The notes beneath the pieces were generated by a model. It was given only the letters and a program-made list of their open reading frames with translations. It made no database searches and was not told the DNA's origin. Shown piece after piece: positions 613 to 28,814 of a DNA stretch of 32,000 bases. Positions within the stretch are counted from its first letter, which is position 1, and each line of letters begins with the position of its first letter. A program made the position numbers and the translations under genes. Source of the DNA: Opitutales bacterium (GTDB lineage Bacteria; Verrucomicrobiota; Verrucomicrobiia; Opitutales; PNEW01); NCBI GenBank assembly GCA_965219535.1, contig CBDCNV010000001.1:720001-752000 (forward strand). The letters run 5' to 3'.

Positions 613-632
613 CGCTCGGCCCCTTCAGCTTT

Positions 633-1648: not shown

Positions 1649-1666
1649 TCAATAATACCATTTCAC

Positions 1667-3397: not shown

Positions 3398-3598
3398 TTT
3401 ATTCCTCTCTTCTTATTTATTTATAAACTTTTTCATCTAAAAGCGGGATTAGTTAACTGTTTTGCTTGAGCCTTTATACTGTCAAGAAAATTCAAGCTTT
3501 TTCAGCGTGTAAAATGAATCCCCCTATCTTTACTAGTCATTCATTATTAAAAACTTAGCTTTGCGTTATGAGCGTAGAGGGTCTTTCACTTCTCGAAA

Positions 3599-5698
3599 TT
3601 ACAGGCGCCAGCGCAATCCCACCGTGGCCATGATCGGTGCGCCAATCGATATGAGACCATTCGACGCTTTTCCGGTTTCAAATTCGGTATCCAAAAAATT
3701 CTCAATTGAAGCAAACCCTTCTATTTTTTTGTTAAATTTATAAGAAACGTAAAAATCTAAAACCGTGTAGTCTTCAAGTTCCAGGGTATTGAGATCGTTT
3801 TCATACTGGCTGCTGGTGTAACGGAGCTGCAGACTGTTTGTCCACTTCGGAATAGGGTTCCAGGTCAATGAGAGATTCATCATGTGTTTCGGTGACTGCG
3901 CCAGGCGATTATTTTCCAGCCCCAACTGAACCGGGCTCTCTGTGATTTCCGAGTCACTGTAGAGGTAACTCGCGGATAACCGCCACTTCTCATTGGGTTT
4001 CCATGAAGCATCCAGCTCGAGTCCGCCGACGCGAACCTGGCCGAGATTGTGCCGCTGGCGACAGGTACCTCCATTGGGGACGAAGCCACAGGGATCAACC
4101 GGACCCGGGCCGAAACCCAGCGTGACGTTGGCAATGGCATCATCGAGGTAATTCAGGAAATACGTCAGACGGAAAACAAAGTCGTCATTTGGCTGAAACT
4201 CTATCCCAGCCTCTCCACCATATAAACGCTCCCGTTCAAGCTGCGGATTCGCTTCAGTAATATCGACGCGTACACGGAACGGGCGATAAAATTCGTTGAG
4301 CGTGGGTGCGCGAAATCCCGTGTAAAGTGCACCGCGGGCGCGCAGTTGATCATTGAAAAGGTAATTCGCGCCGAGGCGAAAATTCCCCACCCATTCATTG
4401 CGATCCAGAAATTGATCGTCGCGAAGAATCTCTCCATTCACCAGATTAGTTTCTTTTCTCCTCCCATTTTCAAGGCTCCAGTAATCGGCGCGCCCGCCAA
4501 AGACCAGGTTGAGTGCGGGGGATACTTCCCAGACATCTTCAAGAAAGAAACCGACTAAGGTCTGTTCGCCGCCGGCATTTCTTTCACGGTTAAAAAATGT
4601 ATCGGTAAAAAAGTATCGTTCATTCGTTGCCCCCTCTACTTTACGGGCGTCCACACCGGCTATAAGTTGGTGTCCTTTTACTGTCTTCAGATTTATTACC
4701 GCGTTCGCACCCCAGGCTTCAGCGGGAACATCGAATTGTTCAAGGGCGGGGTTTTCTGAATCGCGATCCGCGTTTACCGATGTGAACAGATTGCGAAAAT
4801 CACGATTTTGATAATAGACCTGTGCCTGCCATGAAGTATCATTGCTCTGGCTTGAGCCGTTTAGACTAATGCTCGCATCGTATGCTTCAGAATCATTGGC
4901 GGCGAGAGGTGTTCCATTGCCACGCTCTTCATTGAAATAAGACGCATTGAAAACAAGGGTGTTATTATCCGTCAAGCGCCAGCGAATACCGCCTTTGATT
5001 AACTCTGCTTCAGAAAAAGCGTCTCTATCAATTGGCCCTCTTTGATCCGCGCGCAAGACGGGATAGCCGTCTGTTGAAAATCTGTTCGCCGTAATGAAGA
5101 CATCGAGGTCATCAGAGGATTTCTGAGTGACAAGGCTGATATCTGAAGTCCCCCTGTTTCCCCCTGAGGCTTCGATAAGTGCAAAGTCTTTTTCCGGTTT
5201 TCGTGAGAACAAGTGAATCACCCCACCGAGTGCTGCGTTTCCCCACGGTCCGGCGCCGCCACCACGCATCATTTCAACGCCCTCAACGCTGCTTACCGGT
5301 AGGCGGTTCCAGTATACCCAGCCCCCAAATGGATCATTGAGCGGTATTCCGTCAAGTAAGACTAATGTTCTTCCCGCTCCATTGGGACCAAGATTGCGCA
5401 AACTAACACCCTGGGTCGTCGGATGCGCAACTCGGCTGCTGCTTCTTCGAAAAAGGCTGAAACCGGGGATGCTTCTTAAAGCGTCATCCAATCGACGCTG
5501 AGGGGCAGTTTCAATAAAGTTGCGTTCGAGAAATTTATCATCGAAAGGGTTTTCCCATTGATCCATCGAGTAGCGACGACCGATGACCTTTAATTCGGAT
5601 ATATTGACAATCTCCGACTGGCAAAAAAGAGGAGTGAGAACCAGGGCTATTAAGAAATAAACTAACCTACTTACAAGTTTGAGTAGGAATAATTGCAT
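3599..5698 (-). CDS. TonB-dependent outer-membrane receptor, substrate unknown
   Basis: The maximal ORF runs to 5746. The ATG at 5698 (MQLFLLKLVSRLVYFLIALVLTPLF) gives a more plausible signal peptide. Plug-domain motifs are present (FSLFRRSS..., GVSLRNLGPNGAGRTLVLLDGIPLNDPFGGWVYWN, MRGGG). A long beta-barrel-like, Gly/Asn/Tyr-rich region follows, with a FRAPTLNEFY motif. The last residue is Leu rather than the usual aromatic. Confidence 0.85.
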   Translation of the reverse strand: MQLFLLKLVSRLVYFLIALVLTPLFCQSEIVNISELKVIGRRYSMDQWENPFDDKFLERNFIETAPQRRLDDALRSIPGFSLFRRSSSRVAHPTTQGVSLRNLGPNGAGRTLVLLDGIPLNDPFGGWVYWNRLPVSSVEGVEMMRGGGAGPWGNAALGGVIHLFSRKPEKDFALIEASGGNRGTSDISLVTQKSSDDLDVFITANRFSTDGYPVLRADQRGPIDRDAFSEAELIKGGIRWRLTDNNTLVFNASYFNEERGNGTPLAANDSEAYDASISLNGSSQSNDTSWQAQVYYQNRDFRNLFTSVNADRDSENPALEQFDVPAEAWGANAVINLKTVKGHQLIAGVDARKVEGATNERYFFTDTFFNRERNAGGEQTLVGFFLEDVWEVSPALNLVFGGRADYWSLENGRRKETNLVNGEILRDDQFLDRNEWVGNFRLGANYLFNDQLRARGALYTGFRAPTLNEFYRPFRVRVDITEANPQLERERLYGGEAGIEFQPNDDFVFRLTYFLNYLDDAIANVTLGFGPGPVDPCGFVPNGGTCRQRHNLGQVRVGGLELDASWKPNEKWRLSASYLYSDSEITESPVQLGLENNRLAQSPKHMMNLSLTWNPIPKWTNSLQLRYTSSQYENDLNTLELEDYTVLDFYVSYKFNKKIEGFASIENFLDTEFETGKASNGLISIGAPIMATVGLRWRL

Positions 5699-5910
5699 GA
5701 TGTGTGACATTCGCAAATATTTGAACAAGGGAACTATAAACATCATTTGAAGTGAAAATGTAAAGATTATCCAATAACTGCAGTTGAAGCATGGACCACT
5801 GCCAACCGATCTCCATGATAAACTTGATAAATTAGGTAAAGTATTTCCGGGGCTTTACGGTAGTGATTATTAATTGAATAAAAAAGTGACATTCAGCCTA
5901 TTATTCATGT

Positions 5911-6807: not shown

Positions 6808-6823
6808 TCGGTTATTTTTTTTT
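6799..6823 (+). terminator. Weak intrinsic terminator candidate between convergent genes
   Basis: Short stem of 4-5 bp (g)ccga / loop atag / tcgg(t), with the TAG stop codon in the loop. It is followed by t-a-ttttttttt (9 T, 6815-6823). The T-run overlaps the stop codon of the convergent TPR gene. Confidence 0.35.
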
Positions 6824-8060
6824 AAAGACTGTCCATTGCTTGTTGATACAAAGCCAGCTGGGCGCGGATATAATTGGCAAGGTCGTAATCCTTTTCAGCG
6901 GAAGCCAGCGTGACAGCTTTTTCCGCGTACCCTACAGCTTTTTCGTATTCGCCGGCCGCAGAGTAAATGGTAGCCAGGGTATTAAGGATCATTGCGTTAT
7001 TGTAACCGGAAATTATAGAAGCGCGCTCGGCGAGTTGTATAGCAGTTTTGACATCGCGTATTTCCGGGTCCGGGTGTGTGGCCAGAATATATGCCATCCC
7101 GCTCAAGGGCCCGATCATGTTTTTGTTTGCGACCTGTCGAAAATGCCCGAGCGCTTCTGTAAGTTTGCCCTGTGAGTTGAGGACGTTTCCAAGATTGGCG
7201 TGCGCCTGATCGAAATCGGGCTGGGATTTCAGTGCCTGACGGAAATGTGTGATCGCGTCATCCAGCTTTCCTAACGATACATAAACAAGGGCAAGATTAT
7301 TGTGTGTTTGTGCATCGTCTGGTTCCAGCTCTAACGCATGCTGATAGTGAGCGATCGCCAACTCAGGCTTGCCCTGCTTCGTATGGGCATTCGCCAGGTT
7401 GTTATAGGCTTCACGGTATTCGGGATCGAGTTCTATTGCTTGAGTAAAATGAGCGATCGCCTCGTCCTCTCTGCCACTTCTATTAAGGATAACACCCAAA
7501 TTGTTGTGCGCTTGAGCGTAATCGGGATCACTCTTTAACGCCTGCTCCAGGTGAGAGACAGCTTTATCCAGCTTACCCTGTGACTTCAAAGCGATCGCCA
7601 GGTTGTTGTGCGCTTGAGAGTAGTCGGGATCGATCATCAATGCCTGTTGAAAGTGGGTGATTGCTGCCTCAACTCGTCCCTGTGAATTAAGGGCTGTAGC
7701 TAAATCGTTATGGGCTTGGCTATACTCGGGATCTATTGCCAGCGCCCGACTTAAATGATCGATCGCTTCATTTATATTTCCTTCTGACTCGAAGGTAATG
7801 CCGAGAAAATAGTGTGTTTTACTGGAATCTGGATTTAATTCTAATGATCGCTGAAGCACCGCGACTCCCTTCTCAATCTGACCCCGGTTTACCAGGCGCT
7901 CACCTTTTATTGCTAGTGAGTGGGCGTCAATCGTCTCGGTGGATACCGTCTGCTTTAATTGATGAACGCCGATGGACATCATTACGATTAACGGGGTGAG
8001 CCCAATGACTACCGCGATAACCGTGAGGAGAATGCTATTTGATCGTTTTGATTCTGACAT
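6822..8060 (-). CDS. Membrane-anchored tetratricopeptide (TPR) repeat protein
   Basis: 412-aa ORF with an N-terminal TM helix (ILLTVIAVVIGLTPLIVMMSIGV). At least seven consecutive 34-aa TPR units follow, with a recurring D-P-D/E-Y-x-Q-A-H-N-N-L-A...G-K-L-D-x-A-I-x-H-F-x-Q-A-L pattern (residues about 47-312). Confidence 0.9.
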   Translation of the reverse strand: MSESKRSNSILLTVIAVVIGLTPLIVMMSIGVHQLKQTVSTETIDAHSLAIKGERLVNRGQIEKGVAVLQRSLELNPDSSKTHYFLGITFESEGNINEAIDHLSRALAIDPEYSQAHNDLATALNSQGRVEAAITHFQQALMIDPDYSQAHNNLAIALKSQGKLDKAVSHLEQALKSDPDYAQAHNNLGVILNRSGREDEAIAHFTQAIELDPEYREAYNNLANAHTKQGKPELAIAHYQHALELEPDDAQTHNNLALVYVSLGKLDDAITHFRQALKSQPDFDQAHANLGNVLNSQGKLTEALGHFRQVANKNMIGPLSGMAYILATHPDPEIRDVKTAIQLAERASIISGYNNAMILNTLATIYSAAGEYEKAVGYAEKAVTLASAEKDYDLANYIRAQLALYQQAMDSL

Positions 8061-8103
8061 CGAGGTGGATTCTATTTACCAGCTCCTGTTAATATATTTA
8101 TCG

Positions 8104-9183
8104 CTAACGAACCTGGCCCTTTCTAACTGACCAGATAAATCCATCGTACCAAAAATGCATAATTGAGACGACGAGCAATATCGAAGCCATCGTTCGGGTC
8201 GATAGCTGCAGGGTATCCAAATATATTGTATGCCAGATACCAAAACTGATACCGGTCAATATGAAAATAGATAATGCGATCTGTCGTCCACCCCGATACT
8301 GACTTAGGCGAAAAAACGAAGTAATGTTTTTCTGCTCCATGTGCCAGACGATAAAAAAATACTGCCAGGCGTGAAAAAAGTTCATCACAAAGAATGCTTC
8401 ACCAAATGAATTGAATCCCCAGCAAGTAATCGAGACGAGAGCGAGAATGGCGTAAAGAAATACCTTTTGATAGGAGACCTTGTAGCCTCGTTGGCTGAGT
8501 CTCCAGTATGCGTAGAAATAATAAATAAAAAAGAACATACACAGGGTAAGAATGCTGTATGTGAGGAATTGACTGTACTCACCGGTAGCTGGGACCCACT
8601 CAAAAAATGGTTTCTCAAGATCAAGATACTGCTCCAACTGTTCTTGATTAATCATCAAATGAGAAACCAGGGACACTCCGGCCAGGATGGGTCCGGTATA
8701 GAGTATTATATTAAGAACCCAATCGAGACGTCTGCCCATCAGCGCATCGTTGCCTTTTCTGGCGTCATAAATACGTCCAATACCAAAGGTCTGTAGGCTC
8801 GAATGATAAACATCCCACCAGATGCCAATAACTGCAACTATTGCCAGCAGCCATACCGAAAAGCTGACGGCCGCGAATAGCGCGAGCGGAACTATTGTGA
8901 AGCGCCACTTGTAGAGTTTGAATATTTTGGGATTCAGGTGACTGCGGAAAAATACGATAAATAAATGTGAAAAGATGATGACATTGATAAAAGCAATCGC
9001 TAATGATTTATCATCGATCGAGGTGACGCCTTCCGTTAAGGGAAAGGACAGCAGGGGACTCGTCTTGAAAGGGATAAATACCAGTATCGCTACGAGTGGT
9101 GCCGCAATCAGGAATATCGTGTCTCTTATTGGACCCGCAATGTAACTACTCGACGTTTTATTCACAGATTGAGCCATGCCCAA
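8104..9183 (-). CDS. Polytopic inner-membrane protein of unknown function (about 9-10 predicted TM helices)
   Basis: 359-aa ORF, strongly hydrophobic throughout. His/aromatic motifs sit in or near TM segments: FSHLFIVFFRSH, WWDVYHSSLQTFGIGRIYD, FFHAWQYFFIVWH, MHFWYDGFIWSVRK. It lies 43 nt upstream of the TPR gene and is co-oriented with it. I do not recognise the family. Confidence 0.6.
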   Translation of the reverse strand: MGMAQSVNKTSSSYIAGPIRDTIFLIAAPLVAILVFIPFKTSPLLSFPLTEGVTSIDDKSLAIAFINVIIFSHLFIVFFRSHLNPKIFKLYKWRFTIVPLALFAAVSFSVWLLAIVAVIGIWWDVYHSSLQTFGIGRIYDARKGNDALMGRRLDWVLNIILYTGPILAGVSLVSHLMINQEQLEQYLDLEKPFFEWVPATGEYSQFLTYSILTLCMFFFIYYFYAYWRLSQRGYKVSYQKVFLYAILALVSITCWGFNSFGEAFFVMNFFHAWQYFFIVWHMEQKNITSFFRLSQYRGGRQIALSIFILTGISFGIWHTIYLDTLQLSTRTMASILLVVSIMHFWYDGFIWSVRKGQVR

Positions 9184-11534: not shown

Positions 11535-12209
11535 CTATTCGTTTAATCCCAATGCCTGGAGGTAATCTTCCCCGTCATCCCATTTCTTGAAGATTGCTTC
11601 TTCTTCATCCAGGACTTCACGCGCTGCTGTGATCACCGCTGGTGCATCCTTAACCGGGCAAAAAACAATACCGTCAACATCGGCAACAACCAGCTCGCCC
11701 GGTTGGGCAATCACACCACCGATGCTAACTGCTATTTCCGCTTCTGCGCCGACATAACCTTCGGGTAATTTGGGGATGACAAAGGAGTCGGCTGAGATGG
11801 TGCGATGAAACATTTGCATCCCCTGCTTAGTTACATCGACAATGTCGCGGATCGGACCATCAATGATCACACCCGTAAGTCCAGCGTGAACAAATGATCT
11901 GCTCGCTCCTCCGCCAAAGGGTGAACGTAGACCAAGTCGAGACTCGGCTACAAGAACAGGTGAAGCTGCTGTCTTTGCCTGCTTGAATGCATTGGCAAAC
12001 GCATATTCACGGGGGGGTGTCGGTTCTTCAGGAAAAAAATCTAGCAGTAGGGTTACAACCGTGCCCGCGATGCTTTTGTTCGGAATCAGGGGACGTAGTG
12101 AAGGATCGACTATTCGAGGGGGCAATCCCAGTCTCTGCATGCCGTCGGCAATAAAGGGTGATCCCAATTTACGAAAGATTTCAATGATTTCTTCAACCGT
12201 CATTTCCAT
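11535..12209 (-). CDS. RraA-family protein (RraA / HMG-CHA aldolase / oxaloacetate decarboxylase-like fold)
   Basis: 224-aa ORF. GGGASRSFVHAGLTGVIIDGPIRDIVDV and VSIGGVIAQPGELVVADVDGIVFCP fit RraA-like family motifs. Confidence 0.7.
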   Translation of the reverse strand: MEMTVEEIIEIFRKLGSPFIADGMQRLGLPPRIVDPSLRPLIPNKSIAGTVVTLLLDFFPEEPTPPREYAFANAFKQAKTAASPVLVAESRLGLRSPFGGGASRSFVHAGLTGVIIDGPIRDIVDVTKQGMQMFHRTISADSFVIPKLPEGYVGAEAEIAVSIGGVIAQPGELVVADVDGIVFCPVKDAPAVITAAREVLDEEEAIFKKWDDGEDYLQALGLNE

Positions 12210-12360
12210 TTATTTTCTATATCACTATTAGTCCTTCCAGAAGACAAGCGCAATGTTGCTATAAGGTGGATAAGTCTAACAGCTGATGGATTGAGGAATC
12301 TTTAGGGTTGTGAACTTGGATTGACATCTTTAATCCCTGCTTAAACTTTACACAACTGAT

Positions 12361-13257
12361 ATGAGTGATAACGGAGGCGGAAAAGGAAAAAGTGGAATAG
12401 CAGTTTATGCCCTGTCCGATATTCACTTGGATAACGAGGGCAATAAACCGTGGTTTCAAAAACTTTTAAACGATAATTATGCCGACGACACACTCATCCT
12501 CGCCGGTGATGTAAGCGACGACCTAGAACTGCTCAGGGAAACTTTAACCGCACTCCGCGGTTTGTTTAACGAGGTCTTTTTTGTGCCGGGCAATCATGAA
12601 TTGTGGATTAACCGAAGTGATTGTGATGATTCATTGAAGAAATTCTGGCAGATTATAGATCTGTGCAATTCACTGAATGTTAATACCCGCCCGGCAAAAG
12701 TTGGCGGCGGGGAAAATGGAAAAGGTGTCTGGATATTACCGCTTTTTTCCTGGTACCGGAAACCTGAAGAAAGTGATAAGAGCTTATATCATGAAAAACA
12801 AGGAGATGATCCGACTTTGGAAATGTGGTGCGATACCCATTATGTGAAGTGGCCTTCTTTCAAAGAACAGGGTTCAGCGGCAGAGTACTTTCTTCATCTC
12901 AATGAAAAACAGGTCCCATCGAGTTTCGATGCCCCGGTAATTTCTTTCAGTCATTTTTTGCCTCGAAGGGACCTTATATTCAGCACGCAGGAGGAAAGAA
13001 AAATGAACGGGGTGATATTAAAAGATCCTCACCCGGCTTTTAATTTCAGCCGGGTCGCTGGGTGTTCAGGTCTGGAAGAACAAATAAGAAAGTTTGGCTC
13101 GATCATTCATGTCTATGGTCATCAGCATCGCAATAGGCACCGCATGGTCGATGACATACTTTATATCTCACATTGTCTCGGATCACCTTTGGAAAGACAA
13201 AATCATCTGCTCGGAGGAGATATGAAGGGCCCCAAATTAATTTGGGAGGAAAAGTAA
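12361..13257 (+). CDS. Calcineurin-like metallophosphoesterase
   Basis: 298-aa ORF with the ordered phosphoesterase motifs SDIHLD, ILAGDVSD, PGNHE, SHFLP and YGHQH. Confidence 0.8.
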   Translation: MSDNGGGKGKSGIAVYALSDIHLDNEGNKPWFQKLLNDNYADDTLILAGDVSDDLELLRETLTALRGLFNEVFFVPGNHELWINRSDCDDSLKKFWQIIDLCNSLNVNTRPAKVGGGENGKGVWILPLFSWYRKPEESDKSLYHEKQGDDPTLEMWCDTHYVKWPSFKEQGSAAEYFLHLNEKQVPSSFDAPVISFSHFLPRRDLIFSTQEERKMNGVILKDPHPAFNFSRVAGCSGLEEQIRKFGSIIHVYGHQHRNRHRMVDDILYISHCLGSPLERQNHLLGGDMKGPKLIWEEK

Positions 13258-13382
13258 AATGCTTTTTTTAGATTTACCGTAAGGGGTATGACAGAAGCCT
13301 AAAGCTTACGCATTTGCCTTTTAAGAGGTTTAATATTATAAAAAACGAGTTATTTTCTAATATTTATCAAAGTCGGGCGTTA

Positions 13383-13400
13383 TTACCCTTATAAGAGTAA
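13383..13400. promoter_or_regulatory. 18-nt imperfect palindrome upstream of the DUF4139-like array (possible operator)
   Basis: ttacccttataagagtaa pairs at 8 of 9 positions about its centre and ends 35 nt upstream of the ATG at 13435. I noticed no second copy. Confidence 0.2.
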
Positions 13401-13434
13401 TTTTTAAGCTACTGATAATTTAACATTTTTTATC

Positions 13435-14802
13435 ATGATTAAACGAACGAGTAAGAGCATTTACGGGGTTGTGCGGGTCCTGGTTCTATTATGTTTTATT
13501 GCCGGCATCGCCGAGGCGATGGTGGATCTGGTAACACTGCCCAACCGGGAGAGTGTGCAGTTGACGATCTATAACTCCGCGGACTTGACCCTGGCGCAGG
13601 AAAAAAGAGGCCTGACCTTATTGGAGGGGATGAATGAGCTGCAGTTTTCCTGGGCGAATACACTTATCGATCCTACGAGTTTAGAAATGCTCCCACAAAA
13701 GAATGCCGGATCGATTGATATCTTTGATCTGACCTTTCCGCCGCGGGTGAGAAACCTTGGGTTGTGGAATATCAAAAGCGGAATGAGCGGGAAGGTACCG
13801 GTAGAGATCAGCTATTTAACGAGCGGACTTTCGTGGAGAGCATTTTATTTAGGTACCCTGACTACGGATGAGAAGGAGATGAGACTCAAGGGGTACGTGC
13901 GGGTGACAAATAACAGTGGAGAGGACTACGAGAACGCGCAAGTGAGGTTAATCGTAGGGAAGGTGCACCTTATCGACCAGATAGCTCAGTTGGCACAGCA
14001 GCAGTATCCTTACGGTCGACCGGGTTATGAAATTTACGGTGGAGCAGTTGCGCCTCAAAAGGCTTCAGGAAATAAAATGATGCGAATGATGAATGCCGCG
14101 GCAATGGACGCCTCTGTAGCCATGGAACAGGCCCCAAAGCAAGTCGTTAAAGAGGGTTTGAGTGAGTATTTTCTCTACACCATAGAGGGGACGGAAACGA
14201 TCCCCAATGGCTGGTCAAAACGACTGCCGAGCTTTGATACGGCAGGTGTGCCGGTGGTCAATCTCTACAAGTACGAAGAGGAGCGGTATGGCAGGGGAGT
14301 CTTGCGGTTTTTAAGTTTCAAGAATGATGAAGAACATAAATTGGGCGAGACGCCCATCCCGGGAGGGATGATCAAGGTCTTCCGCTCGGTGAATAAAGAA
14401 AAGAACCTGAGCTATGAGGGACAGTCAAATTTCAAATACATCCCGGTAGAAGAAGATGTGGAATTAAACCTCGGAGCGGTGCAGACCGTGGTCGTGGAGC
14501 CGACCCTCATGGAGTATCACACGGAGAACTACCGCTTTGACCGTTGGGAGAACATCAGCGGCTGGGATGAAGTGAGAGATTTTAAAGTAGAGATCAAGAA
14601 TACAAGGGAGATACCTATAAAAGTGGAAATACAGAGAAACTTTAATACCACCTATTGGAAGATAAAGAACAGTGGAGAGTTTGGGAAGTATGAGAAATTG
14701 GATGTCGACACCGTGAAATATACCCTGGAACTGGGGCCGAAGTCACAGAAGACATTGAATTATGTCCTGACAACCTTTCACGGCACGCGAGCAGAAATTT
14801 AA
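13435..14802 (+). CDS. Secreted/periplasmic DUF4140-DUF4139 (MuiA-like, TIGR02231-like) protein, paralogue A with a Met-rich central cassette
   Basis: 455-aa ORF with a signal peptide ending AEA. The N-terminal block (VQLTIYNSADLTLAQEKRGLTLLEGMNELQFSWANTLIDPTSLEM) fits the DUF4140 pattern. The C-terminal block (YFLYTIEG..TIPNGWSKRL..., LRFLSFKNDE..LGETPIPGGMIKVF..., ELNLGAVQTVVV, EIKNTREIPIKVEIQ...YTLELGPKSQKTLNYVL) fits DUF4139. The family call is from memory of the consensus, not a search. Confidence 0.7.
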   Translation: MIKRTSKSIYGVVRVLVLLCFIAGIAEAMVDLVTLPNRESVQLTIYNSADLTLAQEKRGLTLLEGMNELQFSWANTLIDPTSLEMLPQKNAGSIDIFDLTFPPRVRNLGLWNIKSGMSGKVPVEISYLTSGLSWRAFYLGTLTTDEKEMRLKGYVRVTNNSGEDYENAQVRLIVGKVHLIDQIAQLAQQQYPYGRPGYEIYGGAVAPQKASGNKMMRMMNAAAMDASVAMEQAPKQVVKEGLSEYFLYTIEGTETIPNGWSKRLPSFDTAGVPVVNLYKYEEERYGRGVLRFLSFKNDEEHKLGETPIPGGMIKVFRSVNKEKNLSYEGQSNFKYIPVEEDVELNLGAVQTVVVEPTLMEYHTENYRFDRWENISGWDEVRDFKVEIKNTREIPIKVEIQRNFNTTYWKIKNSGEFGKYEKLDVDTVKYTLELGPKSQKTLNYVLTTFHGTRAEI

Positions 14803-14828
14803 TTAAAAATATATTGGGAGTTTAAATA

Positions 14829-15965
14829 ATGAAAACAATCAAGCGGTTATATAGTATTATCACACTAACAGGAATCATCTCCGTTTTTGCGGCAACCGCG
14901 GAAGCGAGAATAAAATTAGTCGCATTGCCGGAGCGCGCAACGACGATAATCAGACTCGATAATCCTCAGTTTACACTTATTGAGGAGGAGCGGGTTTTAA
15001 CCCTGCAGCGCGGAATCAACAAGGTGGATTTTTCCTGGAATGGAGTGAGTATCGACCCTGATTCCATCCGCCTTGCGATATTAACCCATGCCAAGGATGT
15101 AACCTTACTGAATGTCAGTTATCCACCTAATGAAGCCGCCCTGGTATGGGAAATCAGCAGCGCGGGTGCCTGGGAAGAAAAAGTAAGAGTGAGTTATTTG
15201 CTTTCGAATATCGACCGACTAATTACCTATAAAGCCCTCGCGGATAAGCAGGAATCTGAAGTCGATTTTAAAAGCCATCTTATCCTTCGTAATTTCTCCG
15301 GTGAGGATTTTGAACACGCGCGTGTGCTCCTGGACTATGGACAGGCTTTCGAACGGGGAATAAATCATGAAGAGACAAAACAGCTCTTATTTTTATCGGC
15401 CGGCAAGGTGCCGATACAAAAAGTCTGGAAGTGGGATGCCGCGATCCAGGCTTGGGATCCGGAAAAAATAAATCAGAATGTAGGGATTCCCGTCAGCTAT
15501 AAAATTACTAATGACGATGAAAGTCGTTTGGGGGACAATGCTCTTTGGGGTGGAAAAGTAAGGGTATACCAGGAAGATGGTCACGGCAGTACTATTTTGC
15601 TCGGTGAAGATGCTGTCGGTCTGACGCCCGTTGGCGAGGATATGGAAGTTTATATCGGTGATAGTCGGGATATAGTCGTTACGCAGCGCAAAATGTTAGA
15701 CCGTAAAATTAATATACGCTATAATTCGAATAGACATATCGTCCTTTATGATAATGAAGAGCAGATTACGACGAAGATCGAAAACTTCAAGGATTCGGAA
15801 GCCTTATTGACTTTAGTCCAGCACATTCCGGGGGAATGGGAGATGAAAAGGTCGACTTTAAAATATTCTCTTAAGAATGCGAATACCCTCGAGTACGAAA
15901 TTGCTTTAGCTCCCAATAGTGAAAAAGAGCTTAAGTTTCACTATGTTCGTAAGAATATCCGCTGA
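14829..15965 (+). CDS. Secreted/periplasmic DUF4139-like protein, divergent paralogue B lacking the central cassette
   Basis: 378-aa ORF with a signal peptide also ending AEA and a GGGAG ribosome-binding site. It aligns by eye with A: IKLVALPERA../VDLVTLPNRE.., FSWNGVSIDPDSIRL/FSWANTLIDPTSLEM, RNFSGEDFEHARVLL/TNNSGEDYENAQVRL, and an ALAPNSEKELKFHYV/ELGPKSQKTLNYVL tail. It starts 26 nt after A and ends 24 nt before A'. Confidence 0.7.
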   Translation: MKTIKRLYSIITLTGIISVFAATAEARIKLVALPERATTIIRLDNPQFTLIEEERVLTLQRGINKVDFSWNGVSIDPDSIRLAILTHAKDVTLLNVSYPPNEAALVWEISSAGAWEEKVRVSYLLSNIDRLITYKALADKQESEVDFKSHLILRNFSGEDFEHARVLLDYGQAFERGINHEETKQLLFLSAGKVPIQKVWKWDAAIQAWDPEKINQNVGIPVSYKITNDDESRLGDNALWGGKVRVYQEDGHGSTILLGEDAVGLTPVGEDMEVYIGDSRDIVVTQRKMLDRKINIRYNSNRHIVLYDNEEQITTKIENFKDSEALLTLVQHIPGEWEMKRSTLKYSLKNANTLEYEIALAPNSEKELKFHYVRKNIR

Positions 15966-15989
15966 AGGTAAAATTTAAAAAGTAAAGTT

Positions 15990-17330
15990 ATGCGATCAAT
16001 AATAACGACAGGTTTGTGTATTGCCATGATCGTGGCATCTGCCGAAGCGAAGGTGGATCTGGTAACGCTACCCAATAGGGAGAGTGTGCAGTTGACAATC
16101 TACAACTCCGCGGATCTGACCCTGGCGCGGGAAAAGAGAGGGCTGACCTTAATGGAGGGGATGAACGAGCTTCAGTTTTCCTGGGCGAACACACTTATTG
16201 ATCCCACAAGTCTGGAAATGATCCCCCAAAAGAATGCCGGGTCGATAGATATCTTTGATCTGACTTTTCCTCCGCGCGTGAGGAACCTGGGGCTGTGGAA
16301 TATTAAAAGCGGGACGAGCGGAAAGGTACCGGTAGAGATCAGCTATTTAACAAGCGGACTTTCGTGGAGAGCATTTTATTTAGGAACTCTCTCTACGGAC
16401 GAAAAGGAGATGAGACTGAAAGGGTATGTGCGCGTGACGAACAACAGCGGAGAGGACTATGAAAACGCGCAGGTGAGGTTGATCGTGGGGAAGGTGCACC
16501 TTATTGACCAGATAGCCCAGTTGGCGCAGCAGCAGTACCCTTACGGTAGACCGGGTTACGGAAGGTATCCGGAATCTTCATCAGAATTAAGAAAGAAAGA
16601 AGTTTATGAGATGAAAGTAGGCTTGATGGATCTTGAAGAAGATTACAATGGGCGAAGAGATCAGAAAGATATCGTTAAAGAGGGCTTGAGTGAGTATTTT
16701 CTCTACACCATAGAGGGGACGGAAACGATCCCCAATGGCTGGTCAAAACGACTGCCGAGCTTTGATACGGCAGGTGTGCCGGTGGTCAATCTCTACAAGT
16801 ACGAAGAGGAGCGGTATGGCAGGGGAGTCTTACGGTTTTTAAGTTTCAAGAATGACGAAGAACATAAATTGGGCGAGACGCCTATTCCGGGAGGGATGAT
16901 CAAGGTCTTCCGCTCGGTGAATAAAGAAAAGAACCTGAGCTATGAGGGGCAGTCGAATTTCAAATACATCCCGGTAGAAGAAGATGTGGAATTAAACCTC
17001 GGAGCGGTGCAGACCGTGGTCGTGGAGCCGACGCTGATGGAGTATCACACGGAGAACTACCGCTTTGACCGCTGGGAGAACATCAGCGGTTGGGATGAAG
17101 TGAGAGATTTTAAAATCGAAATCAAAAATACGCGGGAGATACCGGTAAAGGTGGAAATCCAGAGAAACTTTAACACCACCTATTGGAAGATAAAGAATAG
17201 TGGAGAGTTTGGGAAGTATGAGAAAGTGGATGTCGACACCGTGAAATATACCCTGGAATTGGGACCGAAGTCACAGAAGACATTGAACTATATCCTGACA
17301 ACCTTTCACGGCACGAGAGCAGAATATTAA
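15990..17330 (+). CDS. Secreted/periplasmic DUF4140-DUF4139 (MuiA-like) protein, paralogue A' with a charged central cassette
   Basis: 446-aa ORF. The mature sequence is nearly identical to A, with about 12 substitutions outside the cassette. The signal peptide is unrelated (MRSIITTGLCIAMIVASAEA), as is the 37-aa central cassette (GRYPESSSELRKKEVYEMKVGLMDLEEDYNGRRDQKD). Confidence 0.7.
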   Translation: MRSIITTGLCIAMIVASAEAKVDLVTLPNRESVQLTIYNSADLTLAREKRGLTLMEGMNELQFSWANTLIDPTSLEMIPQKNAGSIDIFDLTFPPRVRNLGLWNIKSGTSGKVPVEISYLTSGLSWRAFYLGTLSTDEKEMRLKGYVRVTNNSGEDYENAQVRLIVGKVHLIDQIAQLAQQQYPYGRPGYGRYPESSSELRKKEVYEMKVGLMDLEEDYNGRRDQKDIVKEGLSEYFLYTIEGTETIPNGWSKRLPSFDTAGVPVVNLYKYEEERYGRGVLRFLSFKNDEEHKLGETPIPGGMIKVFRSVNKEKNLSYEGQSNFKYIPVEEDVELNLGAVQTVVVEPTLMEYHTENYRFDRWENISGWDEVRDFKIEIKNTREIPVKVEIQRNFNTTYWKIKNSGEFGKYEKVDVDTVKYTLELGPKSQKTLNYILTTFHGTRAEY

Positions 17331-17649
17331 AAAGAGAGAGTTTTCGCACTTACCTGTGTTCATTTGATAGAGGTTTACTCTGTATATACTAATTAAATCT
17401 CATGCCCGCGTAAAGTAATCTGATCTTATCTGCGAGGTCACCCCTTTGTCATTGCGAGGATCCAGCACCTGCTGGAGACGAAACAATCCAGGCAAACGTC
17501 TATTGAGTAAAATTAATCGATAGATTTCAAAATGTTCAATAGATGTATAGTCACGGTAATAACAAAGCATAACGTGCTGTTGTTAATCTTAAAATAGGCC
17601 ACGACCGTGGAATCTCTGCTATTTAAGGTAAGTCCTCGCGAGTCATTAT

Positions 17650-18942
17650 TTAATGTAAGAACATCCCGGCGACACAGGCGGTCATGAGACAGGCCACCAT
17701 TCCTCCTATCATCGCTCGCAGGGCGAGGGTGGCGAGGTTACTGCGTTGATTGGGTGCCAGCACCGCGATACCACCGATCTGAATACCGATTGAACCAAAA
17801 TTAGCAAAACCGCATAAGGCATAGGTGGCAATCATCACCGTTCTTTCATTCGTCAGTATTTCTCCATCAACCATCTTATCGAGTGAGATGAAAGCGATAA
17901 ATTCATTGAGCACCATTTTTTCACCGAGCAGTTGGCCAATCAGCAGCAGATTTCCCGACTCAATGCCGATGATCCATGCCACGGGGGCAAATAATAATCC
18001 GAAAATAAACTGCAGGTTTAATCCTTCAAACCTGCCATCCGTGAACTCGATGATTACAGTATTGAGACCGGTCCAGGAACCGATCCAGTTTAGCGTGATG
18101 TAATTAATCATTGCGATCATCGCGATGAATACGAGGAGAATGGCCCCGACATTTAACGCCAGCTTGAGGCCCTGTGTCGTCCCACTCGCCGCCGCGTCAA
18201 AGAGATTGCAGCCGATTTTTTCTCTGCTCACCTTTAATTCGTGATCAATGGCTTCCGTTTCGGGTAAAAGGAGCTTGGCGCAGAGTATCGCCGCCGGCGC
18301 CGAGAGAATGGATGCGGTGAGTAAATGTTTTCCAATCATCACCTGTCGTTGCGGATCGTCACCGCCAAGAATGGATATATAAGCTACAAATACTCCTCCC
18401 GCGATCGTCGCCATTCCCCCGGTCATCAGGCAGAGGATCTCGGAGCGCGTCATATCTTTTAAATAGGGCTTCACCATCAGTGGCGCTTCCGTCTGTCCGA
18501 TAAATATATTCGCTGCCGCGGCGAAACTTTCCGCTCCCGATAAATGCATCGTACGCTGCATGATCCAGGCAAACCCGTAAACGATTTTCTGAAGCAGACC
18601 CAGGTAATAGAGCACCGAGGTAAAAGCGGAAATGAATATTATGGATGGGAGCACTTTGAAGGCAATGACCGCTTCGTATGAAGTGTCCGATGCTAATTTA
18701 CCAAAAATAAACCGGGACCCTTCATTGGAAAACTCAAGCAGTCGGATAAAAAAAATCGAAACTCCCTCGAGAGCGCTTTCGATCGGCGGGACCCACAATA
18801 CCAGTGCAGCGAGTATTATTTGAAGCAGTACACCCGCCGGAACCAACCGCCAGTTGATCGCCTTCTTTTTTTCACTCAACAAGCAGCAGAACCCTATCAA
18901 CAGGACCAAACCCAACAGACTGCGAAATACATGCCATCCCAT
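17650..18942 (-). CDS. nupC: Concentrative nucleoside transporter, NupC/CNT family
   Basis: 430-aa polytopic ORF with an N-terminus typical of NupC (FRSLLGLVLLIGFCCLLSEKKKAINWRLV). It also shows the motifs SEILCLMTGGMATIAGGV and ALCGFANFGSIGIQIGGI. Confidence 0.88.
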   Translation of the reverse strand: MGWHVFRSLLGLVLLIGFCCLLSEKKKAINWRLVPAGVLLQIILAALVLWVPPIESALEGVSIFFIRLLEFSNEGSRFIFGKLASDTSYEAVIAFKVLPSIIFISAFTSVLYYLGLLQKIVYGFAWIMQRTMHLSGAESFAAAANIFIGQTEAPLMVKPYLKDMTRSEILCLMTGGMATIAGGVFVAYISILGGDDPQRQVMIGKHLLTASILSAPAAILCAKLLLPETEAIDHELKVSREKIGCNLFDAAASGTTQGLKLALNVGAILLVFIAMIAMINYITLNWIGSWTGLNTVIIEFTDGRFEGLNLQFIFGLLFAPVAWIIGIESGNLLLIGQLLGEKMVLNEFIAFISLDKMVDGEILTNERTVMIATYALCGFANFGSIGIQIGGIAVLAPNQRSNLATLALRAMIGGMVACLMTACVAGMFLH

Positions 18943-19104
18943 CTTGGCAACCTACCCAGAAAATCCCTCTTACGACAACTATAGAAAACACATGCTTGTT
19001 TTTTGTGGATAACCCTTTGCTCTCACTTGCTAAAACAGAACTTTTTCATTCATTGAAAAATATGAGCTGTTCTTATTTCACTGAATTTTACTGGGAGGAT
19101 TGAA

Positions 19105-23262: not shown

Positions 23263-23367
23263 ATAATAAATCAATTATATTCCGTTTGTCGCCGAGAGAT
23301 AACAATTGGCGAGATTAGATAATCGTTCTGAATTGTTCGCTAGCTCAATTCCTATTTGTTAATTGTC

Positions 23368-25014
23368 ATGAGGTGTTTCCAATCATGGCTGCTCGGCAAT
23401 GTTATTACTTTTTGTGGTATTCAATTTTTGTACGCACAAATCACGCCGCCTTATCTCACAGACTTTGAAGGTAGTGAAGGTTATAGTCTTGGTGATTTAA
23501 ATGCACAAAATGGATGGGTTCGTAACCAGGGTCAGGCGATAATTAATTCAGGAACTGCTTTTTCAGGGGACAATTTCGTGGCCTTGGTTGCGAATAACCC
23601 ATTTTCGCAAATCAGCATTTTGTTTAATAGCATGGGGGGTGATGAGATTAACTTCGTTGACTTTTATCTTAAGCCGAAAGCGGGTGATATTTTAAATATT
23701 GAAGAGCTTGTCGATTCAGAGGGTGCACTCATTAGCTTTATCAAAGCAGGTTCAGAAGGTGAAGTTTACGTATTCAATGGTGATGGTGCAGGTAATGGTG
23801 AATGGCTCACGACAAATACAAACAACAGTCTGACAATCGATGATATATCACAAAATTGGCTACACTTGACTGTAAGGCATGAATTTAATGAGAAGATTTG
23901 GGATCTTTATGTAGATGGCACGATTCAGGCAATTAACCTTGGACTCATTGATGATGCAGCCACCTATTTAAATGAATTCGTCCTCATGGGGGATCTAATA
24001 GCGGACGTAAATTTTGATTTGTTTTCTCTAACTACTACAAACCCGTTATTCATTGATGCGGATAATGACGGAATCGATGACGCTTATGAAAATATTTACG
24101 GATTAAATACCTCGCTCAACGACAGAGATCTTGATCCCGATGGAGATGGGTTATCAAATATTGAAGAGTTTTTGTATAGCACCTTTGCTGATAATCCGGA
24201 TTCGGACGAAGATAGTGTAAGTGATGGCGATGAGATCCATCTGAATAGAGATCCTCTTCAGTTTGATAGTGTAATAATACAAGCTGACTCAGACTTAGAT
24301 GGACTAGTGACTGATGATAGCCATTCGTCAGACATAACTTCACAGGGTGTCGTCACAAATACGGGAAACGCTGTTATTCATGCGGTCGTTAGTGGTGAAG
24401 AAGGTGAGCTCAAATCTGTAGTCATGAGCGGTAAGGGAACAGTTGAAATTGAAGTGATTAATGAACCAGCTAGTACAATAGCTTTCTACTCATTTGTATT
24501 TACGCCTTCCGTGAGCGAGAATCCTGCGGATCATACGATGCTCAATGTAGCAGGGGCGGTAACAGCATATCCGTGGTACGATAATTTGGATAATGTCACC
24601 TCAGGGCATATAAAAGCTAAGAGTGGTGTTAGCGGTCTCGATTGGATTAGCTCTGGTATATTCTATGGTCTCAAGGATTACGGGGAATCAAAAGTTCCAT
24701 TGCACTTTATGTTGCGACTGGATGAAGAACAGGGAGTTTGGGATCTGTTTATCCAGGATAAACTTTGGTTAGCGGATATTCATTACATTCCTGGTGACGA
24801 TAAAATAATTATCACTTCAGGATCTGAATACCCGACGACTCTGAGAGAGTTAATCATCACTGAAAGTAATCCCCTTTTTGAAGACATCAATAAAGATGGG
24901 CTTCCCGACAGTTTCGAGATCGAACAGGGGTATAGTCCAACCGCCAATAACCGTCATGCTCTCATGCCAGGGGGAACGATGACATTACTGGATTACTACC
25001 TGAACTCTATGTAA
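23368..25014 (+). CDS. Secreted protein with two LamG/ConA-like modules and thrombospondin-type-3-like acidic Ca-binding repeats
   Basis: The ATG at 23368 gives a signal peptide (MRCFQSWLLGNVITFCGIQFLYA/QI); the track ORF begins at a TTG at 23356. Asp-rich repeats are present: DADNDGIDDAYE, DRDLDPDGDGLSNIEE, DNPDSDEDSVSDGDE. There is an internal duplication marked by ...WDLYVDG...TTNPLFIDADNDGIDD and ...WDLFIQD...ESNPLFEDINKDGLPD. The LamG assignment is an impression only. Confidence 0.65.
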   Translation: MRCFQSWLLGNVITFCGIQFLYAQITPPYLTDFEGSEGYSLGDLNAQNGWVRNQGQAIINSGTAFSGDNFVALVANNPFSQISILFNSMGGDEINFVDFYLKPKAGDILNIEELVDSEGALISFIKAGSEGEVYVFNGDGAGNGEWLTTNTNNSLTIDDISQNWLHLTVRHEFNEKIWDLYVDGTIQAINLGLIDDAATYLNEFVLMGDLIADVNFDLFSLTTTNPLFIDADNDGIDDAYENIYGLNTSLNDRDLDPDGDGLSNIEEFLYSTFADNPDSDEDSVSDGDEIHLNRDPLQFDSVIIQADSDLDGLVTDDSHSSDITSQGVVTNTGNAVIHAVVSGEEGELKSVVMSGKGTVEIEVINEPASTIAFYSFVFTPSVSENPADHTMLNVAGAVTAYPWYDNLDNVTSGHIKAKSGVSGLDWISSGIFYGLKDYGESKVPLHFMLRLDEEQGVWDLFIQDKLWLADIHYIPGDDKIIITSGSEYPTTLRELIITESNPLFEDINKDGLPDSFEIEQGYSPTANNRHALMPGGTMTLLDYYLNSM

Positions 25015-25032
25015 CCGTTGCTTATTTTCACA

Positions 25033-28000
25033 ATGAACTGCTTCATAAGATCGATAATATCCACGTTTTCAAAACATTGGGATCATTGGAGAATACCCTG
25101 TATTTCAATATTAATTGCGTTTACAGGATTAATACAGGGATTAAATGCGGCAAACCCTAGTGCCAGTCTGTCGGTCAGCAAGAGTAGACCTAAACGTGGT
25201 GAAACAATTACACTTTCCGGAAATTATAGGGATAGTGATGGAAATCTAAAAGCGGCTACTATCCGTAATCTGGGATCCGGAAATAAATCAGGCTCTATGA
25301 GTGCTTTTCCCAGCATTGGTGCTGCTGGTGAAAGATTATCAGGAAGTAGAGATTCAATCTCACGAAGATTTACCATCCCCAGAGGAGCGAAACTCGGTAC
25401 TTACACTTTTCGCACTGAAGTAGTAGATAAAACATCAGGTTCTGCTATTAGATGGAGAACCGTTAGTGTCCAAAATAATAAGCCTACGGTCAGTATATCC
25501 GTTTCCAAAACCACGATTACTGAAGGAGGATCGGTTACAGCAACTGCATCGGCACGTGATTCAGACGGATCGATTAAACAGGTATCTTTTTTTAGGGATG
25601 GATTATTACACAAGACAGATAAAAGTGCTCCCTACAATTATACTTACCGACCTGCAGGTGTAGGAAAACACAGGTTTCAGGCCTCTGCAGTGGATAATGA
25701 GGGACAGTCTAGAAATTCTAATGTTGTTTATGTTAATGTGAATCCAAAGCCCAATGCAAATCCTGTTGCTGCACTATCTGCACCCAGTAATCCCATGCGG
25801 GGAGAAACTATTTCCCTCATTGGAAGTTACACAGATATAGACGGTAATCTCTCCTCTGCCACCATTCGCGATCTAGGATCGGGACAAAATTCTGGAAATA
25901 GAGGAACATTCCCAAGTATCGGATCTGCCGGAGAATCTATTTCAGGTGGATCAGATTCCATTCAACGGAATTTTACCATCCCAGTAGAAATCCCACTTGG
26001 AATATATACTTTTCGGACTGAAGTTGTGGATACAAAATCAGGCTCAGATATTAAATGGAATTCTACTAACGTCATAAATAATAAACCTAGTGTGAGTTTA
26101 TCCCTTTCAAAGACAACGATCACAGAGGGTGGTTCAGTAACCGCAAGAGCGACAGCAAGTGACATAGATGGGGCGATTAATAGGGTGTCATTTTTCCGTG
26201 ATAACTTTTTACAGGCTGTCGATACAACGGCTCCATTTAATTATACTTATACTCCTCAGGGAACGGGCTCACGAAAATTTCAAGCTTCTGCTTTTGACAA
26301 TGATGAAGGGAGTTCTACTTCCAATATTGTAACCCTTATAGTAAACCCACGGCCAAACCTACCGCCCGTAGCTTCTCTTTCTGTGGACAATTTAACCCCT
26401 GAAGCAGGGGAACAAATTACAATAACGGGAAGCTATTCGGATGCAGATGGCAATCTCCAAGCTGCTACCATACGTGATCTAGGTTCAGGGGATCTTTCCG
26501 GAGACATAAGTGATTTTCCTAGTATCGGTGCTGCAGGCGAGTCGGTAACCGGTAGTAGTGATTCTATACAACGCAATTTTACTATCCCAGTTGGAACACC
26601 AAACGGACCTTATATATTCAGAACCGAAGTAACAGATTCCGAAGGAGCTAGTGATATTGTATGGACGATGGTTAACGTCAGCACTATTCCGCCCGTGATT
26701 ACTTTAAGTATTCCTTCAACAGCTTTTGAAGGAAGTACTGTTCCCGTGGAAATTACAGCTACTGGGTCCAGCTGGAATATTGAAGATATTATAATATACC
26801 ACAACGGGAACAATGTTGGAAACTTCTCTAATCTCCCTGCGCAATACAGTTACACTAACGCAGCACTCGGAACACATAGTTTTCAAGCTACTGTAATTAA
26901 GAAATTCAATAAGAGCGTTTCCTCAAACACCGAAAATTTAACCGTCACTGCGGCACCGCTTGTCAGTATATCGAGCTCATCGCCAGCAACAACCCTGAAT
27001 AACGCTGTAATTTTGAATGTTGATGTTAGTAAAGGTTCTGTTGACAAAGTTAAACTCTATCGTGGGGGGAACCTTGTTAGCATAGACACCTCTTTACCCT
27101 ATTCATTTACGGACACACCTTTTACTGTCGGCATTTACGATTATTTTGCTCGGGTTGTTTTTACCGATGGAAGTATAGTCGAATCTAGCTCGATAAATAT
27201 CGAAGTTGTCGACAATGAAAATGAAATTTGGTCGGACTTCAATAATGATGGCTATTTAGACTTGGAACTTGCGGTTATGGAAAAGCCGATTCTATTGGGA
27301 ACTTCAGGTTCGCTCTTAATAAACGGTGTTGAACTTAGAATAGACGAAGTTCCATTAGATGTATTTGACCCTAATACAGGAAATATAGGAATAGAAATTG
27401 TTCCTCTTACAACTGTTGGTTTTGATATACAGCAGGGTTACACTTACAGAGTGCAATACCAGGATGTATTAGATCCAATCTCTCCCTGGATAGATTGGAG
27501 CCCTGCTTTACCCCAAGCAGGTGGATCTGAAAATAGGATTCTATGGTGTGACTATGAAAACTTATGGGTTAACTGGAGCAATATACCAGATTTTTTCCGA
27601 GCTATCAGATTAGGTGGACCTTCTTCTGTTATCGGTCAACCGTTATCAGCGGACATTAACGGCGATGGCAAAGATGAAATTATTAACGAGGTAACTGCAG
27701 GAGCATTATCAATAACTGGTGATCTCGTAGATATCATTGTTTCACTACCGATAAGTATAACTGGTCATCAATATCGACTGCAAATATGTGTCGGTGATGA
27801 AGCATGGGCTGATGTTATTGGAGTAAGTCCTGTAATAGGGAACGGTGGAACAGTATCCATATCCACCGAAATTCAATCAGACATACTGGCAATCTCGAAG
27901 TTTCGATTTGTTAATTACGATGTTGCCGTTCCAAAAGTTGAATTCGACGACCCGGAAAAAGTGAATAAGAAAAACATTGCAACAGTCCTCCCTTGGCCAG

Positions 28001-28791: not shown

Positions 28792-28814
28792 GGCTTTTAA
28801 AATGATCTATTCGT

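Follow-up and report, generated by a model that had tools for sequence, protein, structure and literature searches.

In Pseudomonas aeruginosa SbrI, an extracytoplasmic function (ECF) sigma factor held by its anti-sigma factor SbrR, drives the expression of muiA, and osmotic shock, D-cycloserine and over-expression of CtpA induce SbrI as well as MuiA, i.e. the two belong to an envelope-stress response (reviewed in PMC10418997). MuiA levels are also raised in biofilms, and the protein influences swarming (PMC7603352), and a DUF4139 protein is abundant in outer membrane vesicle preparations of Tannerella forsythia (PMC10682907). The rest of the literature that we found on DUF4139, DUF4140, PF13598 and TIGR02231 consists almost only of incidental mentions. 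Here, we analysed a stretch of 32,000 nucleotides from an Opitutales bacterium (assembly GCA_965219535.1, contig CBDCNV010000001.1, positions 720,001 to 752,000 of the forward strand; hereafter the window), in which three adjacent genes, A, B and A′, encode predicted exported proteins that we assign to the DUF4139 superfamily. The initial annotation of the window had placed these genes in a family of no known mechanism. This holds for the mechanism, but the control of muiA by SbrI does provide a functional context (PMC10418997). We favour, with a probability of roughly 55%, the reading that the array derives, without the sigma gene, from an operon that is ancient and conserved across the Planctomycetes-Verrucomicrobia-Chlamydiae (PVC) superphylum, and that it represents the effector arm of a module for ECF signalling under envelope stress. 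The identity and ancestry of the genes are very probably as we describe them; the mechanistic part of this reading is tentative.

The three open reading frames (ORFs) encode proteins of 455, 378 and 446 amino acids (aa), lie all on the + strand and are separated by 26 and 24 nucleotides (nt). Their Sec-type signal peptides end in AEA at residue 28 (A), 26 (B) and 20 (A′). Orientation, spacing, signal peptides, lengths and coordinates are exactly as first annotated. In what follows A-type denotes the family of A and A′, B-type the family of the middle gene, and A″ a fourth copy found in relatives; homologous loci carry L-numbers and inspected homologous proteins P-numbers. The features of the array are these:

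13258..13434, + strand: intergenic region 5' of A, presumed promoter region; about 95% conserved in L002 and without an ECF-type motif
13435..14802, + strand: gene A, 455 aa, Sec-exported A-type DUF4139 protein in the position before B, as judged from the ORF, PF13598 (46.7 bits) and the tree
13435..13518, + strand: signal peptide of A, residues 1-28, ending in ...GIAEA before M; its sequence is unrelated to that of the A′ signal peptide
14029..14145, + strand: Met/Ala-rich variable loop of A, EIYGGAVAPQKASGNKMMRMMNAAAMDASVAMEQAPKQV; kept in the orthologue of L002 and not alignable to the loop of A′
14146..14504, + strand: gene-conversion tract, A side; 7 differences in 359 nt from A′
14829..15965, + strand: gene B, 378 aa, Sec-exported, of a distinct B-type family, as judged from the ORF, the hhalign match to the A family and an AlphaFold2 (AF2) model
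15990..17330, + strand: gene A′, 446 aa, Sec-exported A-type DUF4139 protein in the position after B, as judged from the ORF and PF13598 (49.1 bits)
16560..16673, + strand: variable loop of A′, charged, GRYPESSSELRKKEVYEMKVGLMDLEEDYNGRRDQKDI; nearly identical in the A′ orthologues of L002 and L006
16674..17032, + strand: gene-conversion tract, A′ side, as judged from its identity to window A and L002 A
17331..17649, no strand: non-coding stretch of 319 nt where relatives have A″ and a 114-aa membrane ORF, as judged from the match to L002

A and A′ pass the curated model of DUF4139 (PF13598, cut-off 31.8 bits) with 46.7 and 49.1 bits, over only ~150 of its 205 positions, and B falls below it with 23.4 bits. 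A and A′ share 88% of their residues, and either shares 29% with B. Profile-profile comparison of the A and B families gives a probability of 99.7% (hhalign, E 6e-27), and an N-x-S-G-E-D motif is invariant across both. We thus assign all three proteins to the DUF4139 superfamily on the strength of their profiles, in line with the mutual homology and the superfamily proposed in the initial annotation. Its more specific assignments fared less well. All three proteins score below the cut-off of the MuiA family model TIGR02231 (112.6 bits; A 42.9, B 21.1 and A′ 36.7), and in none of them was a DUF4140 block detected at the N-terminus (PF13600, cut-off 27 bits, no match at E<=1); a weak match to the latter, of 17.2 bits, occurs only in the B homologue of L005. 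Nor is B a highly divergent local copy. It represents a separate and equally conserved ancient family, with ~68% identity across phyla.

Both families are indeed widespread. More than 7,900 sequences are significant homologues of A′, and the best of them outside its own lineage are ~70% identical over the full length; orthologues of B with ~68% identity occur in metagenome-assembled genomes (MAGs) labelled Planctomycetota, Omnitrophica and Kiritimatiellia. The nearest genome, OY829953.1, is labelled Opitutales bacterium and is 94% identical. A scan of one genome per species gave 60 loci, from Phycisphaerae, Sedimentisphaerales, 'Pirellulales', Planctomycetaceae, Verrucomicrobiota, Lentisphaerales, Victivallales and Kiritimatiellae, and from one Aegiribacteria and one Gammaproteobacteria MAG. 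The A-type profile alone matches 3,961 representatives at 50% clustering (E<=1e-3), which gives an idea of the size of this family without a mechanism. A and B are two distinct families of ancient origin, and within each of them the identity is ~70% across MAGs of the PVC superphylum. For exported proteins, such identity across Planctomycetota, Verrucomicrobiota, Kiritimatiellota, Lentisphaerota and Omnitrophota is unusual, and it points to either strong structural constraint or horizontal spread.

The order of the genes is conserved as well. We classed the ORFs of all loci by phmmer and tallied them. The 41 full-length B genes occur singly, no locus having two, and an A-type gene lies directly 3' of B in every testable locus (40/40). 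An A-type gene also lies 5' of B in 34 of 36 loci, the exceptions being the B-A pairs of L037 and L039. The number of A-type genes ranges from one to six (six in L014), and the commonest order is A, B, A, at times followed by one more A. Hence, what is conserved at the least is B with an A-type gene behind it. The window fits this rule, with a single B and an A-type gene before and after it, and the triplet, whose presence in relatives had been a question at the outset, is far more widely conserved than was foreseen. The order, with an A-type gene before B and at least one behind it, is kept down to ~40% identity, and in two large groups the genes before and after B form separate clades. We also considered a fixed accessory partner, e.g. 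a transporter or an enzyme, and rejected it because clustering of the neighbouring genes across 65 loci shows no universal flanking family apart from a sigma factor gene.

This sigma factor gene gives the array its context. In 13 loci the first gene of the array is long (574-650 aa) and lies directly behind a gene for an ECF sigma factor of ~196 aa, which abuts or overlaps it, usually by 4 nt; from this arrangement we take the two genes to be translationally coupled. The sigma gene matches Sigma70_r2, r4_2 and Sigma70_ECF, and reaches 106.8 bits with TIGR02937 (cut-off 42.9). The long gene (e.g. L005 4852-6699) encodes, in this order, an HxxxCxxC motif (e.g. 'HLEGCxxCR'), a transmembrane (TM) helix, a low-complexity linker and a complete A-type body, which starts 'PPFAPASAIELVTLPRR'. 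Curated anti-sigma models match the long genes weakly (18.2 bits for zf-HC2 and 23 bits for NF052375, 'anti-sigma factor'). About half of the best full-length A-type representatives at 50% clustering are N-terminally extended, and 17 of the 18 extended ones that we inspected have the motif, the TM helix, the linker and the A-type body. By these marks the long first gene codes for a putative zinc-type anti-sigma factor with a periplasmic A-type DUF4139 domain. We found no description of such fusions, or of the B family, in the literature searched; the main text of the ECF re-classification paper does not feature DUF4139.

A motif with the AAC and CGT hallmarks of ECF promoters, GTCAACC-N16-CGT(C/T)TA, precedes the sigma genes. 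We scanned 1.76 Mb on both strands with a regular expression, for which we estimate ~0.05 strict matches by chance, assuming equal base frequencies. The strict motif occurs ~50 nt before the start of the sigma gene in six loci, and a seventh sigma locus, L034, has a variant with GGTCTA. The same motif is found directly 5' of solitary A-type genes in three loci, two of which (L007 and L012) come from the same MAG, CSMAG_1316, as the sigma operon L041. Its positions are as follows:

Before sigma genes: L005 4194, L015 55, L026 4302, L028 6046, L034 2437 (the variant), L041 4814 and L061 4806
Before solitary A-type genes: L007 3917, L011 7444 and L012 5354

As they share this motif with the sigma genes, the A-type genes look like members of the regulon of the ECF sigma factor, and the motif could serve to define this regulon genome-wide. 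In L011 a chimeric ORF of 367 aa (7603-8706) lies between the putative ECF promoter and the full A-type gene; it starts with an A-type signal peptide and ~12 residues of the mature N-terminus (…AKVDLVTLPSRDT), to which unrelated sequence is fused.

The window holds a reduced form of this operon. None of its ORFs of at least 120 aa has a Sigma70 domain, the 17-21 kb loci of close relatives have no sigma gene, and the gene directly 5' of the array codes for a metallophosphoesterase, not for an ECF sigma factor. Where the long forms carry the anti-sigma domain and the TM helix, A has a Sec signal peptide of 28 residues. The motif GTCAACC-N16-CGTYTA is absent from the window; with up to three mismatches there are 8 matches for 5.4 expected, none of them 5' of A on the + strand. 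Generic scans for sigma-70 promoters and terminators gave only chance-level matches, and a search of window positions 12000-19000 against Rfam gave none. In a neighbour-joining tree of 109 A-type bodies, those fused to anti-sigma domains form their own clade and window A clusters with the copies that follow B in its own lineage. This grouping indicates that gene 1 was replaced in the window lineage, or else that its copies evolved in concert.

Sigma-less arrays are found elsewhere too. L066 has such a triplet in an unrelated genomic context, with a gene-1 loop that resembles the loop of window A, and the whole clade at ~40% identity is sigma-less, its short pre-B genes forming a clade of their own. 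A brief look for a conserved promoter in this clade gave no firm result. Several of its upstream regions (L044-L063) share 'TCTAACCAAACGG' near a divergent gene of 165 aa, which may be a different promoter or operator, and a gene for a Ser/Thr kinase of ~1600 aa lies ~2 kb upstream in nine loci.

The recent history of the array can be followed in its syntenic slot, which is bounded by the metallophosphoesterase gene and a gene for a NupC-type transporter. The slot contains:

L002 and L006: A-B-A′-A″ and a 114-aa membrane ORF
Window: A-B-A′, then 319 nt in place of A″ and the small ORF
L067: a single A-type gene, its loop of the A′ type, and the small ORF (here a 116-aa membrane ORF); no B

A″ has 446 aa in L002 and L006, and the region 9345-11451 of L002 corresponds to 17331-17649 of the window. 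Positions 17201-17362 of the window match L002 at the 3′ end of A′ and also at that of A″, and positions 17445-17798 match L002 11220-11600. We considered window A′ as a deletion hybrid of A′ and A″; this is not clearly supported, the gene being a mosaic of conversion tracts with no single breakpoint. In L067 the single gene (7001-8746) stands in the same synteny (CBS, epimerase, RraA, metallophosphoesterase ... NupC). A recent A/A″ recombination does not account for it, as it is ~80% identical in nucleotides to all copies throughout. A phage-type integrase gene lies ~4 kb upstream in this locus. Gene 1 of L006 (7445-8812 of this locus, which belongs to OY829953.1) has one in-frame stop at a Trp that is invariant in the family (LGL*SIK) and is otherwise 95% identical; the stop could be a very recent nonsense mutation or an error of the long-read assembly.

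Codon by codon, the comparison of A and A′ reveals four zones: the signal peptide, the N-terminal half, the central loop, and the block after the loop with the C-terminal part. The signal peptides are unrelated in sequence. The N-terminal half (alignment columns 29-198) has 54 synonymous and 6 non-synonymous differences (dS 0.74, dN/dS 0.02), in agreement with the one nucleotide in nine and the six residues given before. The central loops, of ~39 aa, cannot be aligned. Just 3' of the loop a block of ~360 nt is 98% identical, with 7 differences and a dS of 0.09, and beyond it the dS of the C-terminal part is 0.40. This block is a recent gene-conversion tract between A and A′. In its second half (about columns 901-1100) A′ is 96-98% identical in nucleotides to window A and to L002 A, and only 85-91% identical to its own orthologue, L002 A′. 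The description of the outer two proteins as near-identical is thus apt for their bodies but not for the signal peptide and the ~39-aa loop.

Relative to the L002 orthologues, A has a dN/dS of 0.11, A′ of 0.06 and B of 0.03, with an overall range of 0.03-0.17. These values lie far below 1 and indicate strong purifying selection on every copy, which bears out the earlier proposal that selection keeps both A copies. The loops are alike between orthologues and different between paralogues: Met/Ala-rich in A, charged in A′ and of yet another kind in A″. The signal peptides, like the loops, are paralogue-specific and conserved between orthologues. Conversion thus evens out the A-type bodies and spares their loops and signal peptides. 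As these segments are specific to each paralogue and conserved between orthologues, simple redundancy of A and A′ is unlikely, which was also the initial view. The hairpin loops are often rich in Met, Pro and Ala (6 Met in the 39 residues of window A, 8 Met in L037), and the Met-rich ones recall, in composition, Met-rich segments that bind Cu(I) or hydrophobic peptides.

Structure prediction is consistent with a common architecture. The AF2 model of A′ (pLDDT 76, pTM 0.60) has an N-terminal beta-sandwich (~30-166), a helical hairpin (170-238) and C-terminal beta domains (239-441). The variable loop is the disordered tip of the hairpin, modelled with low confidence (pLDDT <50). The model of B (pLDDT 78.8) has the same all-beta architecture without the hairpin, and B indeed lacks the ~80 residues equivalent to ~169-252 of A′, i.e. 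the hairpin and loop region. MuiA-like proteins have a long central coiled-coil; the A-type proteins have the short variable hairpin in its place, and B has neither. Both models, independently, have the lumenal domain of Ost1/ribophorin I, a subunit of the eukaryotic oligosaccharyltransferase, as their top Foldseek match in the PDB (A′ with 6s7t_E, E 2e-5; B with 6c26_1, E 7e-4). These matches span the full length, with TM-scores of 0.14-0.22, an rmsd above 22 Å and 8-10% sequence identity. They are followed by generic beta-sandwich proteins, and the TM-score to any solved structure is at most 0.23. A sequence-profile search of the PDB found no solved relative of the window proteins, Ost1 included. 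The likeness to Ost1 can hence be taken as a lead on domain architecture only. We detected no catalytic-domain signal in A, B or A′. Some secreted A-type homologues have extra C-terminal domains of ~170-250 aa (P0242, P0084, P0019 and P0260, with further tails of this kind at L024 4742-6697 and L045 11931-13889). By eye the tail of P0242 is LamG/ConA-like; P0260 has acidic repeats, and in P0247 the N-terminal domain is interrupted by a large insertion.

How might such a system work? Our favoured reading, that of a sigma-less derivative of an ECF operon, starts from the full form: an ECF sigma factor, a zinc-type anti-sigma factor with an A-type periplasmic body, B, and one to three secreted A-type proteins. 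The sigma factor seems to drive its own operon and dispersed A-type genes from the GTCAACC-N16-CGTYTA promoter. Since it would drive A-type genes and the anti-sigma factor itself has an A-type body, the membrane sensor would be a paralogue of the secreted products it controls. A, B and A′ might be periplasmic tandem beta-sandwich proteins that bind or scaffold, with no recognisable catalytic domain. B might work with an A-type partner as an obligate pair, and the A-type copies might differ in function through their hairpin loops. In the full system the soluble paralogues could interact either with the sensor domain of the anti-sigma factor, to which they are homologous, or with the same envelope ligand. 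In this way they could gate the regulated proteolysis of the anti-sigma factor and the release of sigma, much as RseB and MucB do. Neither the sigma gene nor the N-terminal domain of the anti-sigma factor nor the promoter is present in the window lineage, and position 1 is held there by a secreted A-type copy, between which and A′ gene conversion has taken place. On the best-supported account, the window array is what remains of such a module after the loss of its sigma/anti-sigma switch, its effector arm; it would comprise an obligate B+A pair with a second A-type variant that carries a different loop.

Two known systems help to place this reading. In the sigma-E and AlgU pathways, a membrane anti-sigma factor is guarded by a soluble periplasmic partner (RseA-RseB and MucA-MucB). 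The likeness is one of logic only, a membrane anti-sigma factor and a soluble periplasmic protein in the same operon. There is no relationship in sequence or fold, and in the PVC operons the candidate soluble partners are paralogues of the sensor domain, their interaction with it being deduced from this analogy and paralogy. The second system is SbrI/SbrR-MuiA, in which an ECF sigma factor drives an exported protein of the DUF4139 superfamily under envelope stress. Likewise, relatives of the window array have an ECF sigma gene and an ECF-type promoter before A-type genes, and a comparable envelope-stress role would fit the full system. Yet, the window proteins score below the MuiA cut-off, the PVC operons fuse the DUF4139 body to the anti-sigma factor itself and continue with B and one to three A-type copies, and the version in the window has no sigma gene. 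To our knowledge, a DUF4139 domain is absent from SbrR, and muiA and sbrIR are not linked.

Several points weigh against this reading. The sensor-guard mechanism rests entirely on analogy. The Pseudomonas precedent is distant, as the window proteins fail the model of the MuiA subfamily. Sigma-less arrays are common (the ~40% clade and L066), so the sigma-linked form may be derived rather than ancestral. The copy number in the slot varies among close relatives, being one in L067, three in the window and four in L002 and L006; together with the stop in gene 1 of L006, this argues against B or any particular A copy being strictly indispensable at this locus. The absence of a sigma gene covers the 32-kb window and the loci of the relatives, and a sigma factor acting in trans from elsewhere in the genome would fall outside that scope.

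The initial annotation had favoured a free-standing heteromeric assembly in the periplasm or at the surface, with A and A′ exchangeable around B; as a rival to our reading, this assembly would have no part in sigma signalling. The strict B-then-A adjacency, the single B next to a varying number of A-type genes, the paralogue-specific loops kept between orthologues and the frequency of sigma-less A-B-A arrays would all be expected of such an assembly. It is compatible with the data and plausible, tempered by the changes of copy number in one and the same slot. Yet, it passes over the 13 loci in which gene 1, for a putative anti-sigma factor, is coupled to the gene of an ECF sigma factor, and over the ECF-type promoter shared by solitary A-type genes, and L067 keeps a single A-type gene without B; we consider it possible, if somewhat unlikely. 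More doubtful is a variant that joins the two views, with the DUF4139 domain of the anti-sigma factor as a built-in subunit of a hetero-oligomeric envelope assembly of secreted B and A-type proteins, whose assembly or occupancy the cell would monitor. Sigma-less arrays such as that of the window would then be the free-running structural version.

The A-type genes might instead be equivalent tandem duplicates that matter by their dosage, their number drifting by unequal recombination and conversion and the A-B-A′ order having no special meaning. One, three or four copies in one slot, conversion tracts among them, the in-frame stop in L006 and arrays of up to six A-type genes can be cited for it. 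But genes without individual roles would hardly keep the order before and after B down to ~40% identity, with separate clades in two large groups, nor loops and signal peptides that escape homogenisation, nor a dN/dS far below 1 in every copy, and we think such drift unlikely. Quite unlikely, too, is that the window array still obeys a cognate ECF sigma and anti-sigma pair encoded elsewhere in the genome, i.e. that the operon was split and not uncoupled. Control in trans does seem to exist in the A-type family, since in CSMAG_1316 the sigma operon and two solitary A-type genes share the same promoter motif. Yet, at the window array even a relaxed motif is missing 5' of A on the + strand, and neither the window nor the loci of its relatives have a sigma gene.

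That these are exported beta-sandwich proteins of an adhesin-like or glycan-binding kind, with which the cell attaches to surfaces or forages for polysaccharides, is very unlikely: Foldseek matches include pilins and MSCRAMM-type adhesin domains, some homologues have extra C-terminal domains such as the LamG-like tail of P0242 and some loci lie near glycoside hydrolase or lyase genes, but ~70% identity across phyla is atypical of binding proteins adapted to a substrate, Pfam domains of the CBM or adhesin kind were not detected in A, B or A′, no CAZyme neighbour is conserved across loci and TM-scores reach at most 0.23 for all solved structures. We also rejected a role in defence, because PADLOC returned no family at E<=0.01 for A, B or A′.

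The array is thus more interesting in its context than alone. What looked like an isolated triplet is part of a defined and widely conserved operon, with a B+A pair, variable loops, an ECF sigma factor and its candidate promoter and a putative anti-sigma sensor homologous to the secreted proteins. MuiA under SbrI/SbrR, the single experimentally studied member, would then be one case of a general relationship between ECF sigma factors and DUF4139 proteins. If the more doubtful variant is true, with the anti-sigma domain as a built-in subunit of the assembly, it would represent a new ECF logic, the mutual recognition of paralogous sensor and effector domains, and a first mechanism for DUF4139.

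Other parts of the window also hold genes of interest. On the + strand, positions 23356-29687 contain a cluster of three genes, in which ORFs of 552 aa and 290 aa without Pfam match flank a protein of 1257 aa that has four Ig-like domains of the Big_7 type and gives weak signals for FG-GAP and MG2; this is probably an operon for a large surface protein of unknown function. On the - strand, positions 52-5746 encode a cytochrome c (cbb3-type domain), a solute-binding-like protein, a PQQ-dependent dehydrogenase (576 aa) and a TonB-dependent receptor (715 aa), which may form a module for the periplasmic oxidation of alcohols or sugars. An ORF of 359 aa on the same strand (8104-9183) matches no Pfam family, adjoins a TPR protein (6822-8060) and is conserved in L001 and L002 as ORFs of 357-366 aa, likewise without a Pfam family.

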